A stretch of 32,000 nt of DNA from Nitrososphaerota archaeon (GCA_002713205.1 PAVW01000017.1:27035-59034); one strand, 5' to 3'. Shown: positions 2,769-8,509, counted from the stretch's first letter. Numbers and translations are program-made. The notes: generated by a model from the letters alone, not told the origin.

Positions 2769-3044
2769 TCATTTCTTCCATAATACTATTTTATATTGAC
2801 CTGATCCTGATTTCCAGACACTATACTTTGAAATATATTCAATGACTGATTGAGGCACTGCTTTGGTGGCCATTACATGATCAGTTTCTATAATAATTAC
2901 ATCATTTTCGATTTTTTGAATTTGTTCACGTGCTACTATTTGTGGATAAGGACATACTTCACCATCCATATTGATTATTTTTGCCGTTTTTTCTAATTGC
3001 TTGATTTCTTCATTAGAAATTTCTATTTCAGTTACCATAATCAT
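2769..3044 (-). CDS. TusA/SirA-family sulfur carrier (YeeD/YedF-like partner of YeeE)
   Basis: 91-aa ORF with the CPYP (CPxP) active-site motif in GEVCPYPQIVAREQI. It sits 6 nt downstream of the YeeE/YedE gene on the same strand. Confidence 0.8.
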   Translation of the reverse strand: MIMVTEIEISNEEIKQLEKTAKIINMDGEVCPYPQIVAREQIQKIENDVIIIETDHVMATKAVPQSVIEYISKYSVWKSGSGQYKIVLWKK

Positions 3045-3050
3045 TCACCA

Positions 3051-4148
3051 TTAAATCGCACATCCAACTTTTCTAAACATCCAGTGTGTTGCTATATAAA
3101 CTCCAAGTACTAGACCTAACGATGTTACAAATCCAGACACGGAAAGAAAAGCTAGACCACTGAATGTATTACTTATGTTACAACCAGGAGCCATTCTAGA
3201 TCCAAAACCCATGAGCATGCCGCCTATTATTGCATTTTGCACCCTATTCTTTTTAATCATTCTTATTTTAAAATCTCCACTGAAATATGCAGATATAAAA
3301 GAACCAAAAATTAAAAATAATAACATTATCATATCTAGACTTATGGAAAAATTTCCTCCTGAAAAAACAACATTATTCCAGTAGATATTTTCTTGCAATG
3401 CTTCCATTCCAATTATATTGCTATACGTTAAACCTACCCATCTAGCTTGAGGACCCGTAACACTAAGTGTCCCCCAAACTATAAACCATAATGTTGCAAA
3501 AATTCCCATTCCAAAACCAACAATTTTTGCATCCCAAGCTGATTGTAGGTTGTTGATAGAAATAGATGAAATATTAAATTTTGATATATTTGTAATTAAA
3601 CCCAATTGTTGTTTCTTTTTCAAATATAATACACATGATAGTATGATCAAAATCGGAACAAGTACTGATGTTTGCCCTAAACTTTCAATTAAGCTAAATC
3701 CTTCGAATATTTGTAATGGAGTGAAGAAATATGGAAAGAAAAAGATTGAAAATAAAGATGCAAAAATTACATAACCTGCACATGCTGATATGAGCAGTAA
3801 CCAGTAGTGTAAGTATCCTTCCCCTGCTCTATACAGTGTACCTGATGCACAACCTCCTCCATATACCATTCCGATTCCGAATACAAATCCACCTATTATG
3901 TTGCTTAATCCATAATTTGGTATCCAAAAATGCGAATTTGAAACTCCTAATGAATATGCTATGCTTGTACCTAACATCATGGTTATAATTCCAATTAATA
4001 GACCATACAGTACTCTAGTATCTTTGAATGCTACATAATCTCTTAACGCACTAGTAAAACAAAATCTTCCTTTTTGTAATAATACTCCAAATCCTATTCC
4101 AATTATAATCGTTAAAATTAAACTTAATAATCCTGAATATTCAATCAA
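3051..4148 (-). CDS. yeeE: YeeE/YedE-family thiosulfate / sulfur-compound transporter
   Basis: 365-aa polytopic membrane protein. It carries the three conserved Cys motifs of the family: GRFCFTSA, GGGCASG and APGCNIS. Confidence 0.85.
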   Translation of the reverse strand: MIEYSGLLSLILTIIIGIGFGVLLQKGRFCFTSALRDYVAFKDTRVLYGLLIGIITMMLGTSIAYSLGVSNSHFWIPNYGLSNIIGGFVFGIGMVYGGGCASGTLYRAGEGYLHYWLLLISACAGYVIFASLFSIFFFPYFFTPLQIFEGFSLIESLGQTSVLVPILIILSCVLYLKKKQQLGLITNISKFNISSISINNLQSAWDAKIVGFGMGIFATLWFIVWGTLSVTGPQARWVGLTYSNIIGMEALQENIYWNNVVFSGGNFSISLDMIMLLFLIFGSFISAYFSGDFKIRMIKKNRVQNAIIGGMLMGFGSRMAPGCNISNTFSGLAFLSVSGFVTSLGLVLGVYIATHWMFRKVGCAI

Positions 4149-4153
4149 TTATA

Positions 4154-5296
4154 TTATCCTCCACAGTTGAAATTAGCGCCTATTACTTTCCTAGCTTCAG
4201 TATTTGGACCACTTTTACCTGATTCTCCCATTATATTAAAAAACTGGACATTATGAGGACCATTTCCAGTTTCCAAGACTGTTACTATTTCCATTTTCTG
4301 TATGTCTATTATTGATACGGTAGCATCACCACTATTAGTTACATATGCAAATTTTCCTTCAGGATCTATATCGATATTATGTGGAGATTTACCTGTTTCC
4401 AATTCCTTTATTATTTCTAGTGTTTTTACATCAATTATTAATAATTTATTCATTTCAGGTATGGTGACAAGTAAATTCTTATCATCTTTTGTCACTGCTA
4501 ATCCATGAGGTGTTGATTCTAATATTATCTCACCGGGCTCTACAAAACGAAAATTTGCCCTACCAAAAATTCTATCTAAAATATCATCTAATACTAATAT
4601 TCTAGCTGGTATTTTTCGTATTTTATCGTCTACTTCTGCCGTCCCAATAAAGATTTTCTTATTATTATGGCCTGAAACTATCATCAAAGGTTCAGATTTC
4701 AACCTGATATTCTTCACAACTTTTTCTTCATTAATATCAATAAATGATAAAGTTCTAGATTTTGTATTTGTTACAACAGCTATATCATCATAACGTGCTA
4801 CATGGTGAGGTGCTTCCTGTACTCTTATTTCTGAAATTATTCTATCGGAAGTCGTATTCAGTAAAATTAATGAATTCGTATCTCTGCTAACAACAAAAAA
4901 CACTTCTTCTTTTTCATCAAATATGCCTGCATGTTGAATATTTTCACCTATGGGGATCTTGTATTTTATTTCTAGCGTTTGTGGATTTAATACTAGTATT
5001 TCAGATTGTCCATGATGAATTAAATATAGTTTGTTAAGTTTACTATTGAAATGCGCACCATACTGACCAGAGCTAATTTCTAATGGTATTTCCGTTACAA
5101 TATTAAAATTAATTGGATCAACTATAGTGACTGTTCCTGATATAGTATTAAATATCACCGCTTCATATGTATTGGATTCATTTGATATCGAATGGTAAAT
5201 GAAAGTTCCACCAATCAAAAATCCTATTACTAGACCTGTTAATAGAGCCGCTCTAATGAGGAACTTCTTATTTCCAGTCTTTGACAACTTTTCCAC
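4154..5296 (-). CDS. membrane-anchored YVTN-repeat beta-propeller protein, predicted extracytoplasmic
   Basis: GTG start. The N-terminus MEKLSKTGNKK followed by FLIRAALLTGLVIGFLIGGTFIY looks like a signal anchor. About 40-residue repeats follow (for example KFAYVTNSGDATVSIIDIQKMEIV, LLVTIPEMNKLLIIDVKTLEI). The C-terminus ends ...KVIGANFNCGG. Confidence 0.75.
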   Translation of the reverse strand: MEKLSKTGNKKFLIRAALLTGLVIGFLIGGTFIYHSISNESNTYEAVIFNTISGTVTIVDPINFNIVTEIPLEISSGQYGAHFNSKLNKLYLIHHGQSEILVLNPQTLEIKYKIPIGENIQHAGIFDEKEEVFFVVSRDTNSLILLNTTSDRIISEIRVQEAPHHVARYDDIAVVTNTKSRTLSFIDINEEKVVKNIRLKSEPLMIVSGHNNKKIFIGTAEVDDKIRKIPARILVLDDILDRIFGRANFRFVEPGEIILESTPHGLAVTKDDKNLLVTIPEMNKLLIIDVKTLEIIKELETGKSPHNIDIDPEGKFAYVTNSGDATVSIIDIQKMEIVTVLETGNGPHNVQFFNIMGESGKSGPNTEARKVIGANFNCGG

Positions 5297-5319: not shown

Positions 5320-6504
5320 TTAAAACTGTTTCAGATCCACAGGAACTATTTTTGATGGACTTTGTGGCAGTGCTATACTGTCTAATTTTTTAAATGAACC
5401 TACTTCAAAGACATCAATTGAACTATTGCCTCCATTAGGTACATATGCAAGACTACTATCTGGACTGAACGCTGGATGACCTGAATTTTCGATTTCAATC
5501 TTTGTAACTTCCTCGAGACTTTCCGTGTCATATACTATTGATGCTGGTCCAGTTCTAACTAACACATATCTTCCATCAGGAGTAAATTCGCTAGTTCTTG
5601 GTGGTGTTTCCACCAATGGAAATCTTTTTACTACCTCTTTTGCTTTAATATCCCAAACCATTTCTTCTGCATCTGTATTCTTAAATCCACCAACATTTGA
5701 CCAATTTCCTGCTGAATTTACTTCAATGAATGCCAAATCATTGTTTGGAGAAATTGTTATCATGCTTCCTCCCCAATCTGAATACTCTGTTGCTAAATGC
5801 TCTTCCACAGTGAAACTATTCGTATCAATTACTGTTAGTAAACTTTCTAGTTGGTTAGTAGTCCATAGTTTGTTATCTGGACCTATTGCAACATCACAAC
5901 AAAACTTTGGTACAGGGAGTTCACCTACTATCTCTCCACTCTGGAGATCAACTTTATAGATTATTGAAGGGTCTACATCTGAAAATGGAATTTCAAATTC
6001 TTCCCTTGCCGCATTAAATTGCTCATCCGAAAATTTCTTAGCAACTAATAGATTCAAAAAATATCCATATTTCCCATCTACATCAGTCTCTGCTAATGCA
6101 AATCTCCATCTTCCTTCTAATGGTATTTCTGTTAACTTCTCATTTGTTGACGGATTTACTTGATATACCGTAGCTTTTCCACCAGCTCTTCCAAGCCCCC
6201 AAATATTTCCATTTTTATCTGGATAGTGATTGGCCCAGTCTACTCTTCCTGCTTCTGCTATCCAAGTAGGTCCTGATGAAGCTAGTAATTTACCTAACGC
6301 TAAATCAATTGTAGCAATTGAACCTTCGGCGCCAAAGACATAGCCTAAAGCACCTTTTTCTTGTTTGAGTTGTTCTAATTCTTGTTCTAATGGGGCTATT
6401 TGGGATCTGTTGGAGAGATAACCTGCACCTCCAATTCCGATACCTACTACGCCTCCGGCTAAATATTTAATGAAATCTCTTCTATTCACATTTTTGGCTG
6501 TCAT
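5320..6504 (-). CDS. Tat-signal beta-propeller-like protein
   Basis: The N-terminus NRRDFIKYLAGGVVGIGIGGAGYL matches the twin-arginine motif (S/T-R-R-x-F-L-K) plus an h-region. The body has propeller-like repeats (LAYVPNGGNSSIDVFEV, LLTVIDTNSFTV) and a vicinal Cys pair, KFCCDVAIG. Confidence 0.6.
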   Translation of the reverse strand: MTAKNVNRRDFIKYLAGGVVGIGIGGAGYLSNRSQIAPLEQELEQLKQEKGALGYVFGAEGSIATIDLALGKLLASSGPTWIAEAGRVDWANHYPDKNGNIWGLGRAGGKATVYQVNPSTNEKLTEIPLEGRWRFALAETDVDGKYGYFLNLLVAKKFSDEQFNAAREEFEIPFSDVDPSIIYKVDLQSGEIVGELPVPKFCCDVAIGPDNKLWTTNQLESLLTVIDTNSFTVEEHLATEYSDWGGSMITISPNNDLAFIEVNSAGNWSNVGGFKNTDAEEMVWDIKAKEVVKRFPLVETPPRTSEFTPDGRYVLVRTGPASIVYDTESLEEVTKIEIENSGHPAFSPDSSLAYVPNGGNSSIDVFEVGSFKKLDSIALPQSPSKIVPVDLKQF

Positions 6505-6571: not shown

Positions 6572-8008
6572 ATGAGTACTAGACAAGAATTTTGGGATAA
6601 TGTTTCCAAGTATAGAGAAATGGGTATGGATCCGTTGCGTTGGGTAGCAGGTTGTGCTGTTAAGGTAGATCTTAATTCAGTTGTTTATCCTACTCTTCAT
6701 AATATAAAACCAAGTCTAAAACAAATGGGAATTTCTTTAGGCGCAAGAGTAGATGCTGATATATTTCCCCTCGTTGGAGATGGACCTATAATTAATCGAA
6801 GAATTTATGATCCATTTTCTACTAGTATTGATACTGAGGATTTAAAAAAAATTAATCCTAAACGTGCAATTTCACTTCTCCAGGTCTTTCAAAAAAACGC
6901 TGAAAAACAAGAAAAATTTGAAGCGTTGTTGATCAGTCTTTATACATCTATATCAAAATCAAATGTTCATTTTTCTGTTGGAAAAGGGCATTCTATAATA
7001 ACACCAGACAAAGAGGCCGAATTTGCACTTTTTGATTTTATTTCTTATGAAGAAGGTCAAACAGACGGTTATTGTTTATCAAATAATGATACTATTCAAA
7101 TTATTGATCCTACTGCAGATCCTTCATCTGAACAACAAACTAATGTAGCAGTATCGAATTCTCTCAATGATTTAATAACATTGGGTTGTTTTGAAGAATT
7201 GAAAGTTTTACCAGTTGTAGATGCACCAAACCAAGAAATTGAAACACAAATTCTAAAAAATATGACAAGTTTTGCAACTAAATATAATATTGAATTAATT
7301 CCCGCAGAATCTCCTAAACGTAGTAAATTACTAATTGGCGCTACATTATTTGGTTCATTACAAAAAGAACCTCCGACTAAGTTAGATTTGTTGGATTCTG
7401 ATATGAAAATTCTCGTTACGCGACCATTTGGTGATCTAGCTCCTATTAACGTATTCTTATCATGTGTAGCGGATGACACTTTTCTTAAAGACCTTGAAGC
7501 TACTGGATATGGTCTTAAAGATGTTCAGAAGGCTAAAGATTCAGTTATTAAAACTATGAGTGAACCTAATCTCAAAGTCGCAAAAATTATTAATAAATAC
7601 CTCCCTGATTTTGGAAGTGACTTTAATGTTCAAGAACATATTCTAGCAACTGGAGACCTTTCAGGTCCTGGTATAATGATCTTCAAGGAACATGCAGATA
7701 ATGCAAATGTGGATATATCTCTTGATAATTTACCTTTGCAATATCCAGAATTTGTCAAATACGCTACCGAAAATTTCTTAATGGATAATGCAACTGCTGG
7801 GACTAATGGAGCTGTTGCTATAATTGCTAGTTCTAATATTATTGGAAATATTAAGACTGATTTAGCTAAAGAAGGATATGATCCTCGACTTGTAGGTACT
7901 ATACTTGGCAAAGGTACTGGCAATGTTCGTGTTGGAAAGAATGTTAAAGATATGATTGCATCGCAAGCTTTATTGGATGATTTGGATATAACCGGGAATG
8001 AAAATTGA
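6572..8008 (+). CDS. SelD-like PurM-superfamily protein (selenophosphate-synthetase homolog, atypically long)
   Basis: 478 aa. The N-terminal loop VAGCAVKV aligns by eye with SelD GAGCGCKI (Cys28 and Lys31 correspond to E. coli Cys17 and Lys20). Other by-eye matches: VAVSNSLNDLITLG to AATNAISDIFAMGG, ATGDLSGPGI to TDVTGFGL, and NATAGTNGAVAIIAS to PQTSGGLLLAV. There appears to be an extra insertion of about 100 residues after the N-terminal loop. Confidence 0.6.
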   Translation: MSTRQEFWDNVSKYREMGMDPLRWVAGCAVKVDLNSVVYPTLHNIKPSLKQMGISLGARVDADIFPLVGDGPIINRRIYDPFSTSIDTEDLKKINPKRAISLLQVFQKNAEKQEKFEALLISLYTSISKSNVHFSVGKGHSIITPDKEAEFALFDFISYEEGQTDGYCLSNNDTIQIIDPTADPSSEQQTNVAVSNSLNDLITLGCFEELKVLPVVDAPNQEIETQILKNMTSFATKYNIELIPAESPKRSKLLIGATLFGSLQKEPPTKLDLLDSDMKILVTRPFGDLAPINVFLSCVADDTFLKDLEATGYGLKDVQKAKDSVIKTMSEPNLKVAKIINKYLPDFGSDFNVQEHILATGDLSGPGIMIFKEHADNANVDISLDNLPLQYPEFVKYATENFLMDNATAGTNGAVAIIASSNIIGNIKTDLAKEGYDPRLVGTILGKGTGNVRVGKNVKDMIASQALLDDLDITGNEN

Positions 8009-8255
8009 TTTGAGTAAACAATCTAACATAAAAACACTGGATTTAAAAGGTCAGATTTGTCCTTGGCCGGTTATTTTTACAATGAAAGAACTGCAGAAAA
8101 TGAACGATGGTGACATTCTTAAAGTTACAATAGATCATTTACCTTCTACGTTAAATATACCTGCAGCTGCTTCAAAGGAGGGCAATGAGGTTGTTAGTTC
8201 TACCGAGATTGGTGATGGTGTTTTTCAAATTGAAATTAAACACAATATAATCTAG
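7998..8255 (+). CDS. tusA: TusA-family sulfur carrier protein
   Basis: 85 aa with LDLKGQICPWPVIFTMKEL (CPxP motif). The start overlaps the SelD-like stop by 11 nt. Confidence 0.8.
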   Translation: MKIDLSKQSNIKTLDLKGQICPWPVIFTMKELQKMNDGDILKVTIDHLPSTLNIPAAASKEGNEVVSSTEIGDGVFQIEIKHNII

Positions 8256-8281
8256 TAATCTGTTTAACTAGGTGTTGAAAA

Positions 8282-8509
8282 TTGAAAATCGATAGATCGT
8301 TAGATGTTAAAGGTCTTGTTTGTCCTGTTCCTGTACTGAAGACTAAACAAATTATATCTAAAATGAATTCTGGCCAGATTCTTGAAATTTTAGCTACAGA
8401 TAAAGCAGCTAAAGATGACATTCCATCTTGGGCACAACGAGAAGGACATGATGTTTTAGATGTTGCCGAACATGAAAATATTTTCACATTTTATTTAAGG
8501 AAGAAGTAA
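8282..8509 (+). CDS. tusA: TusA-family sulfur carrier protein (tandem paralog)
   Basis: 75 aa, TTG start. LDVKGLVCPVPVLKTKQ and the ATDKAAKDDIPSWAQREGH layout are classic TusA/SirA. Confidence 0.85.
   Translation: MKIDRSLDVKGLVCPVPVLKTKQIISKMNSGQILEILATDKAAKDDIPSWAQREGHDVLDVAEHENIFTFYLRKK

Follow-up and report, generated by a model that had tools for sequence, protein, structure and literature searches.

A 32,000-nucleotide stretch of DNA from a Nitrososphaerota archaeon (hereafter the window, always meaning the whole stretch) encodes a membrane-anchored, seven-bladed YVTN beta-propeller whose only cysteine lies in a conserved C-terminal Cys-Gly motif, and which stands between a second, Tat-exported propeller and a YeeE-type sulfur channel in a gene order kept in all related loci with readable flanks. 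We tentatively read this arrangement, with a confidence somewhat short of even, as a thiol-based module outside the cytoplasm that takes up sulfur and passes it on to YeeE, the tail cysteine being its mobile reactive element and possibly cycling with Cys203 of the Tat propeller.

The propeller gene translates into a product of 380 residues ending in ...KVIGANFNCGG. The DNA at its end reads aac tgt gga gga taa, followed by tataa and then by the ttg of the channel gene; the stop codon occupies positions 4154-4156 and the TTG start of yeeE lies at 4148, leaving a gap of 5 nt. Translation and DNA thus bear out the C-terminus, the position of the cysteine codon and the spacing to the channel gene as they had been given in an earlier note on this sequence. 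The protein passes the family thresholds of both the Pfam YNCE domain PF21783 (43.7 bits, cut-off 27.1) and the YVTN repeat TIGR02276 (61.9 bits, cut-off 27.85). Its AlphaFold2 model, obtained from a 27-sequence alignment, has a mean pLDDT of 84.6 and consists of a helix (residues 10-37) followed by 28 strands that form seven blades. The top match in the PDB is the archaeal YVTN propeller 1l0q, by structure (Foldseek, E = 2.5e-20) as well as by profile (E = 1.2e-40), and further Foldseek matches are hydrazine synthase beta, NirF, NosZ (5i5i), BtuG and AztD (6n01). Repeat scores and fold therefore place the protein among the YVTN/YncE beta-propellers, as the earlier note had it, with seven blades in the model in place of the seven to eight counted there. 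The features of the operon and of its surroundings are listed in Table 1.

Table 1. Features of the anchored propeller, of its operon and of the adjoining genes (positions counted from the first letter of the window)
Feature	Position	Strand	Basis
TusA/YeeD-like carrier, CPYP motif	2769..3044	(-)	PF01206 28.0 bits, just below cut-off 28.6; NF041048 match
YeeE/TsuA-type sulfur channel, 365 aa, cysteines C30, C100, C323	3051..4148	(-)	PF04143 180.8 bits
Signal-anchored 7-bladed YVTN beta-propeller (P0001), 380 aa	4154..5296	(-)	translation, Pfam/NCBIfam, AlphaFold2, Foldseek
Propeller tail, residues 354-380: hypervariable linker, then K-[IV]-[IV]-[SG]-A-N-F-N-C-G-G	4157..4237	(-)	pLDDT, entropy
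GGAGG made by both terminal Gly codons, possible Shine-Dalgarno site	4158..4162	(-)	9 nt upstream of yeeE TTG
Cys378 codon, sole Cys of the propeller	4163..4165	(-)	translation, ortholog comparison
Transmembrane anchor, about residues 16-36, IGFLIGGTFxYH, small-xxx-small (G25, G29/G30, T31)	5189..5251	(-)	AlphaFold2 helix, conservation
Tat-signal 7-bladed propeller (P0205), 394 aa, first operon gene	5320..6504	(-)	TIGR01409, AlphaFold2
SelD-related putative sulfur-metabolism protein, divergent	6572..8008	(+)	NF038049 552 bits, cut-off 250
Two small TusA-like carriers, CPWP and CPVP motifs	7998..8509	(+)	translation; tblastn similarity to TusA-like protein
Two-domain rhodanese sulfurtransferase, CYCQVGERAS loop	8512..9315	(+)	PF00581 120.9 bits, two stretches

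For conservation, we compared 16 orthologs, namely 15 database sequences and the ortholog of locus L009, gathered from three protein searches, genome searches and one metagenome scan. One sequence, P0012, was excluded as a probable assembly chimera, its NAD-epimerase N-terminus being fused to residues 182-380 on a 2.8-kb contig. Five basic residues (K3, K6, K10, K11 and R15) lie ahead of the hydrophobic helix and acidic residues behind it, so that the propeller should face outwards. The charge pattern fits an N-in/C-out topology and, together with the Tat-exported partner, upholds the extracytoplasmic placement proposed in the earlier note. The anchor helix is more conserved than the average of the propeller: within the genus, 11 of its 21 positions are invariant compared with 113 of 309 in the propeller, and none of the 16 orthologs differs at G25 or T31. 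Its GxxxG-like pattern is as expected for a helix that packs specifically against a membrane partner.

In the model, the P-H-x motif that marks innermost strands is found in the last strand (residues 347-353, GPHNVQF), and the blade closed by this strand is probably completed by the first three strands of the chain (45-71). By strand order and the convention commonly applied to propellers, the tail and the 7-residue linker from the membrane helix would leave the propeller on the same face, so that the tail should start close to the membrane. Its emergence on the membrane-facing side is thus a prediction from strand order and propeller conventions rather than a reading of model coordinates. The strand starts and B-C loops hold the conserved positions H122, H164, H264, H306, R138, N177 and M205, with H122, H164, H264, R138 and M205 invariant in 16/16 orthologs and H306 in 15/16; the pocket of conserved His/Arg/Asn positions would lie on the face opposite the tail exit.

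Over an identity range of 96% to about 30%, each ortholog contains exactly one cysteine, which is always found in the tail (16/16), and both C378 and G379 are invariant over this whole range. The 11-residue motif of the tail is the most conserved region of the protein (lowest entropy) and the 16-residue linker preceding it the least conserved (highest entropy). AlphaFold2 predicts residues 357-380 to be disordered (pLDDT ~30), in agreement with the proposal of a flexible rather than buried tail. Note that, as evidence for a mobile arm, disorder counts for little when the model derives from 27 aligned sequences. The very end of the protein varies with the clade: P0047 and L009 end in ...NFNCG, P0048 in ...NFTCGG, and P0072, P0190 and P0191 in ...[YF]TCGAYIHVRD. 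Invariance of the C-terminal Cys-Gly-Gly, a check suggested in the earlier note, holds for the Cys-Gly pair and fails for the second glycine. Judged from the aligned sequences, the conserved element is [FY]-[NT]-C-G on a flexible tail and not a SoxY-type GGCGG carboxy terminus.

The tail nevertheless exceeds what chance would give, being the only CGG end among the 930 ORFs of the genome (~0.03 expected) and presenting an invariant Cys-Gly behind the most variable linker. The same count (1/930) led us to reject CGG as a C-terminal signal for sorting or lipidation in general use by the organism. As for the glycines, their codons in the window's genus spell GGAGG, which precedes the start of yeeE by 7-9 nt in every locus with a CGG end. 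The Gly codons are GGA/GGG-GGN in 7/7 distinct CGG-ending loci, with GGG GGT in one. In the window's genome, GAGG/GGAG is about fivefold enriched ahead of operon-internal genes, relative both to first genes and to the background. Given the GGAGG spelled by the Gly codons and this operon-internal enrichment, a ribosome-binding site of yeeE may account for part of the Gly-Gly conservation.

The Tat propeller, encoded immediately upstream, was modelled with a pLDDT of 81 as seven blades behind a poorly ordered N-terminus (residues 1-39, pLDDT under 50), with no membrane helix past the signal peptide. Its sole cysteines are the adjacent C202-C203 (KFCCDVA); C203 is invariant in 18 homologs and sits in an innermost strand in the model, and C202 is replaced by S or A in three of them. 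The family is restricted to the same lineage as the anchored propeller, and a search of the ESM Atlas with the Tat propeller returned generic propeller and Tat clusters and nothing else. By sequence comparison, the part of the module outside the membrane thus holds two invariant cysteines only, C378 and C203.

On the membrane side, C30, C100 and C323 of the channel align with C22, C91 and C293 of S. thermophila YeeE (6leo), so that all three pathway cysteines are kept, and with its Sulf_transp domain the protein belongs to the YeeE family. It scores 131 against the TsuA equivalog cut-off of 400, and its substrate is therefore not assured. The order Tat propeller, anchored propeller, YeeE is found in 15/15 loci of relatives (L002-L009 and L013-L019), with TusA after YeeE wherever the contigs continue, and the same order recurs on a contig from a metagenome that belongs to the 30%-identity clade (P0191 clade), with 6 nt between the anchored propeller gene and yeeE. 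The module gene order is kept in all 16 related loci with readable flanks, and the link to the channel that the earlier note had pointed out persists even in the most distant clade. The SelD-related gene adjoins the operon in six fully read loci (L013-L015 and L017-L019), and its start is seen at the edge of six shorter ones. All the neighbourhood genes identified by Pfam/NCBIfam profiles concern sulfur or selenium trafficking, and none concerns metals.

The host genome is small (0.92 Mb, ~30% GC, 76% complete), and the related loci come from Thaumarchaeota/Nitrososphaerales MAGs of sea water. Archaeal AmoA was not found in any of 15 genomes of the host's family and is present in 7 genomes of other families of the same order. 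These traits match those of the small-genome heterotrophic marine Thaumarchaeota described in PMC7300363 and PMC13374868; the latter ranks these archaea as the second most abundant group of the phylum in the ocean behind the ammonia oxidisers. The propeller and YeeE occur together in 9/9 genomes of two small-genome genera, the window's own included, and the NIR_SIR sulfite reductase in none of these nine. In three larger-genome genera, by contrast, NIR_SIR is present and the propeller and YeeE are both absent in 6/6 genomes, a pattern of two genera against three that represents very few independent events, in genomes most of which are 70-96% complete.

The module stays within two genera of marine Thaumarchaeota that do not oxidise ammonia, and no further ortholog of the propeller was found at E <= 1e-30 among 400 genomes drawn evenly from the phylum. 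Protein searches gave a few metagenomic relatives only. Out of 1.84 billion cluster representatives, 6 of the best 150 matches were relatives of the present type, three of them (P0047, P0048 and P0072) at full length. PAPS reductase, SoxY and HdrB-type CCG domains were not found in the window's 76%-complete genome, which argues for sulfur acquisition and not for sulfur oxidation. A 2026 study reports that these archaea are devoid of sulfite reductase and have proteomes poor in Cys and Met (PMC13374868). In the passages searched, neither that study nor the 2020 description (PMC7300363) mentions thiosulfate uptake or the propeller. As to expression, the Tat propeller is covered, mainly over 5380-6465, by contigs assembled in four metatranscriptome runs, and one identical 258-nt contig from an RNA library lies within the anchored propeller gene (4952-5209). 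These contigs are strandless and may include carried-over DNA, stretches without coverage are uninformative, and we take the contigs as a weak hint that the operon is expressed.

Under the sulfur hand-off that we favour, the anchored propeller would form one half of a lineage-specific outer module supplying sulfur to YeeE. An external sulfur species would be bound by, or react with, the His/Arg/Asn-lined pocket, the Cys203 of the Tat propeller, or both. The tail thiol would then take up the sulfur, in persulfide or thiosulfonate form or once a C378-C203 disulfide has opened, and carry it to YeeE, to the positively charged indentation on its outer side, beside C323. In the solved YeeE structure, the outermost conserved cysteine lies at the bottom of such an indentation (PMC7449682), and YeeD brings its own cysteine to the inner exit, as a 'fourth cysteine' (PMC11073785). 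C378 might accordingly be viewed as a 'zeroth cysteine', the outer counterpart of the TusA/YeeD one. In the cytoplasm, the TusA paralogs, the rhodanese and the SelD-like enzyme would receive the sulfur. By analogy and without homology, the tail would work in the manner of the SoxY arm.

Several lines of evidence favour this hand-off: the single invariant tail cysteine, the conservation profile, the predicted disorder of the tail and the conserved anchor; the gene order, the invariant cysteine of the Tat propeller, the relay cysteines of YeeE and the distribution complementary to NIR_SIR; the host's own genome, devoid of PAPS reductase, SoxY and HdrB-type CCG domains as searched, together with the independent findings of PMC13374868 and the metatranscriptome hint; and the finding that CGG is no sorting signal. 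It is weakened by the clade-dependent C-termini (CGG, CG and CGAYIHVRD), which offer no single SoxY-like end. Moreover, the uptake of thiosulfate by a thiol needs an oxidant, SoxY depending for this on the haem enzyme SoxXA, and an oxidant enzyme of this type is absent from the locus. The YeeE proteins of E. coli and S. thermophila function with YeeD alone, so that outer partners are not generally required, which also counts against it. A stricter version, in which sulfur stays covalently bound from Cys to Cys all the way, from C378 (with C203 as redox partner) through the YeeE cysteines and TusA to the SelD-like enzyme, appears unlikely to us; it would have the tail insert into the outer indentation of YeeE and the sulfane sulfur move along the three channel cysteines.

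The same conserved positions can be read as an enzyme. The two propellers would then together form an outer enzyme converting a polythionate, a polysulfide or an organic persulfide into a small anion that diffuses to YeeE and is conducted by it, with the tail cysteine acting as a nucleophile or as a lid on the pocket, either its own or that of the Tat partner. H122, H164, H264, H306, R138 and M205 stand where the active sites of propellers usually fall, the invariant C203 of the Tat partner likewise belongs to an innermost strand, and Tat export suits a protein that is folded or loaded with a cofactor beforehand. Extracellular propeller enzymes of sulfur metabolism do exist, e.g. tetrathionate hydrolase, which has been treated together with YeeE import in Sulfolobaceae (PMC11323534). 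However, AlphaFold2 leaves the tail undocked from the pocket (pLDDT ~30), the strand order puts its exit opposite the conserved pocket, and searches of Pfam, NCBIfam, the ESM Atlas and PDB profiles gave no family-level match to known sulfur enzymes. Furthermore, a free enzyme needs neither a conserved membrane helix nor a tight coupling to yeeE. We regard this possibility as rather unlikely.

The two invariant cysteines, one per propeller and the only ones outside the membrane, could also be purely structural. A permanent disulfide between the tail cysteine and C203 of the Tat propeller, or between two copies of the anchored propeller, would carry no sulfur on either cysteine; in the first case, it would tether the soluble Tat propeller to its anchored partner above YeeE. 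Exposed thiols tend toward disulfides in a habitat of oxic seawater, and the Tat propeller, having no modelled membrane helix after its signal peptide, would need such a tether. Nevertheless, the innermost strand of a blade, where C203 is located, is an unusual tether site, and the strong conservation of A-N-F-[NT]-C-G suggests specific recognition over a simple cross-link. Note that a sulfur-reactive pair, too, would be expected to rest as a C378-C203 disulfide, so that finding one would leave the sulfur hand-off standing. A purely structural role is, in our estimate, doubtful.

A copper or zinc protein, similar to the CuZ site of NosZ or to AztD, with the His ring, M205 and the tail Cys as ligands and with the adjacency to YeeE reflecting metal-sulfur chemistry or coincidence, is improbable. 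His, Met and Cys are classical copper ligands, in most blades the innermost strand begins with one His, a His apparently moves between blade 4 (PHM, distant clades) and blade 3 (PHH, window's genus), and weak matches are found to L-NosZ and AztD, by profile as by Foldseek (5i5i and 6n01). But the profile scores fall far from the cut-offs (L-NosZ NF052460, 73 against 700 bits; AztD NF038015, 18.8 against 400 bits), and their best-scoring stretches are generic repeats (residues 260-350 and 166-207, respectively). Unlike in the fixed seven-His CuZ site, invariance is limited to H122, H164 and H264, some orthologs having lost the His of blades 1, 4, 6 and 7, and a His at the same position is common in unrelated YVTN proteins. 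In addition, the surrounding genes deal with sulfur and selenium and not with metals, and the model does not place the tail close to the pocket. We thus rejected both a seven-His site of the NosZ/L-NosZ type and membership among the AztD zinc metallochaperones.

In the literature searched on YeeE with propellers and on Thaumarchaeota with YeeE, we found no description of such an architecture. The earlier note was likewise aware of no description of it. The concept of a cysteine arm feeding a YeeE-like channel is not new: a hand-off from the SoxY cysteine to the three cysteines of the YeeE-like SoxT channel of bacteria has been called 'conceivable' (PMC11582611), in a field where the outer presentation of sulfur to YeeE/SoxT-type channels is described as unresolved. 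If true, the covalent relay would be the first protein arm feeding a YeeE-type channel directly and independently of a SoxY origin, and it would explain the sulfur supply of streamlined deep-sea heterotrophic Thaumarchaeota without sulfite reductase. For the as yet unexplained sulfur supply of the heterotrophic marine Thaumarchaeota, the locus is the obvious candidate. One operon with two invariant outer cysteines is also a simple, mutable system in which covalent hand-off can be set against diffusion. Even if the hand-off is wrong, an anchored propeller with a conserved single-Cys tail would still make a new functional subtype within a parent family that is very large and mostly uncharacterised.

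Among known systems, the archaeal surface YVTN/YncE propellers (1l0q) give the best match in sequence and structure, yet generic members have neither the conserved anchor helix nor the single-Cys tail nor the linkage to YeeE. BtuG on BtuB (BtuG being seven-bladed) and AztD are likewise propellers that capture a scarce external substrate for a membrane transporter, a resemblance at the level of the fold only (12-16% identity); they bind vitamin B12 or zinc non-covalently, without a Cys tail, and serve bacterial TonB-dependent or ABC transporters.

A functional analogy is offered by SoxY and its 'swinging arm' (PMC5336275 and references therein), which also has a single near-C-terminal cysteine on a flexible extracytoplasmic peptide (here predicted) and a link to a YeeE-family channel and to TusA (here known from gene order). 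The earlier note had seen in the terminal Cys-Gly-Gly the hallmark of SoxY, which our comparison does not sustain. SoxY is part of a soluble, Ig-like SoxY/SoxZ heterodimer, whereas the present protein is a membrane-anchored seven-bladed propeller without a match to the SoxY domain PF13501 at E <= 0.01, and SoxY ends in GGCGG, whereas here the motif is [FY]-[NT]-C-G, without conservation of a Gly-Gly end. No SoxZ, SoxXA or SoxB was found within the locus by Pfam/NCBIfam profiles. The Sox pathway has a role in energy metabolism, whereas assimilation is the likely purpose in an archaeal heterotroph. With this fold and without PF13501 or an invariant GGCGG-COOH, membership of the SoxY family was rejected. 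Finally, the YeeE/TsuA and YeeD/TsuB pair (6leo, 8j4c) shares with the locus the three relay cysteines in YeeE and a CPxP TusA-like neighbour. Two papers on YeeE and YeeD describe no extracytoplasmic partner (PMC7449682; PMC11073785), whereas every locus that we examined has the pair of propellers in a fixed place upstream of yeeE.

Comparing the 15 genomes of the host's family (G000-G014), we observed that the YeeE-propeller module and the NIR_SIR sulfite reductase have perfectly complementary distributions. NIR_SIR was found in none of the nine genomes carrying the module, and YeeE and the propeller ortholog were both absent from all six NIR_SIR-bearing genomes.

We then consider divergence between the window and the related loci L002-L019. 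The anchored propeller, the YVTN protein encoded just upstream of yeeE, shares ~51% identity with its counterparts in genus-mates, compared to 67-78% for the Tat propeller, 67-75% for YeeE and ~80% for the divergently oriented SelD-like gene, indicating that it evolves much faster than its operon partners. Despite this fast divergence, its membrane helix and tail motif are almost invariant. A database protein record from a 2.8-kb contig (P0012), in which the N-terminus of an NAD-dependent epimerase is followed by residues 182-380 of a propeller ortholog, including the CGG end, probably arose by chimeric assembly, not by a natural fusion.

At the nucleotide level, the last two Gly codons of the anchored propeller spell GGAGG, which precedes the yeeE start by 7-9 nt in the window and loci L002-L008, with one locus displaying GGGGG instead. 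GAGG / GGAG motifs are enriched ~5-fold upstream of operon-internal genes in the window's genome. These terminal codons may be of dual use, coding and ribosome binding.

Features and their coordinates (window positions unless a contig is named)
Feature	Position	Strand	Basis
YeeE C-terminal end, ...FRKVGCAI	3051-3071	minus	sequence
Vicinal Cys pair KFCCDVA, Tat propeller residues 202-203	gene 5320-6504	minus	sequence
Terminal Gly-Gly codons, anchored propeller	4157-4162	minus	GGAGG, 7-9 nt 5' of yeeE start
tRNA, 93 nt, identity undetermined	2676-2768	plus	ARAGORN
93-aa ORF ending ...LPAVSGG	G000 contig C11:3431-3712	plus	sequence

The tRNA lies directly 3' of the TusA-like gene. The 93-aa ORF may encode a ubiquitin-like sulfur carrier of the ThiS/MoaD/SAMP type, which could act downstream to accept the imported sulfur.

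The Tat propeller harbors no cysteines besides its vicinal pair; among 18 homologs, C203 is the sole invariant Cys, C202 being replaced by Ser or Ala in three. YeeE displays an additional Cys three residues from its C-terminal end, and the ortholog from family genome G010 ends identically. This cysteine, located outside the stretch alignable to S. thermophila YeeE, is probably on the cytoplasmic side, toward TusA.
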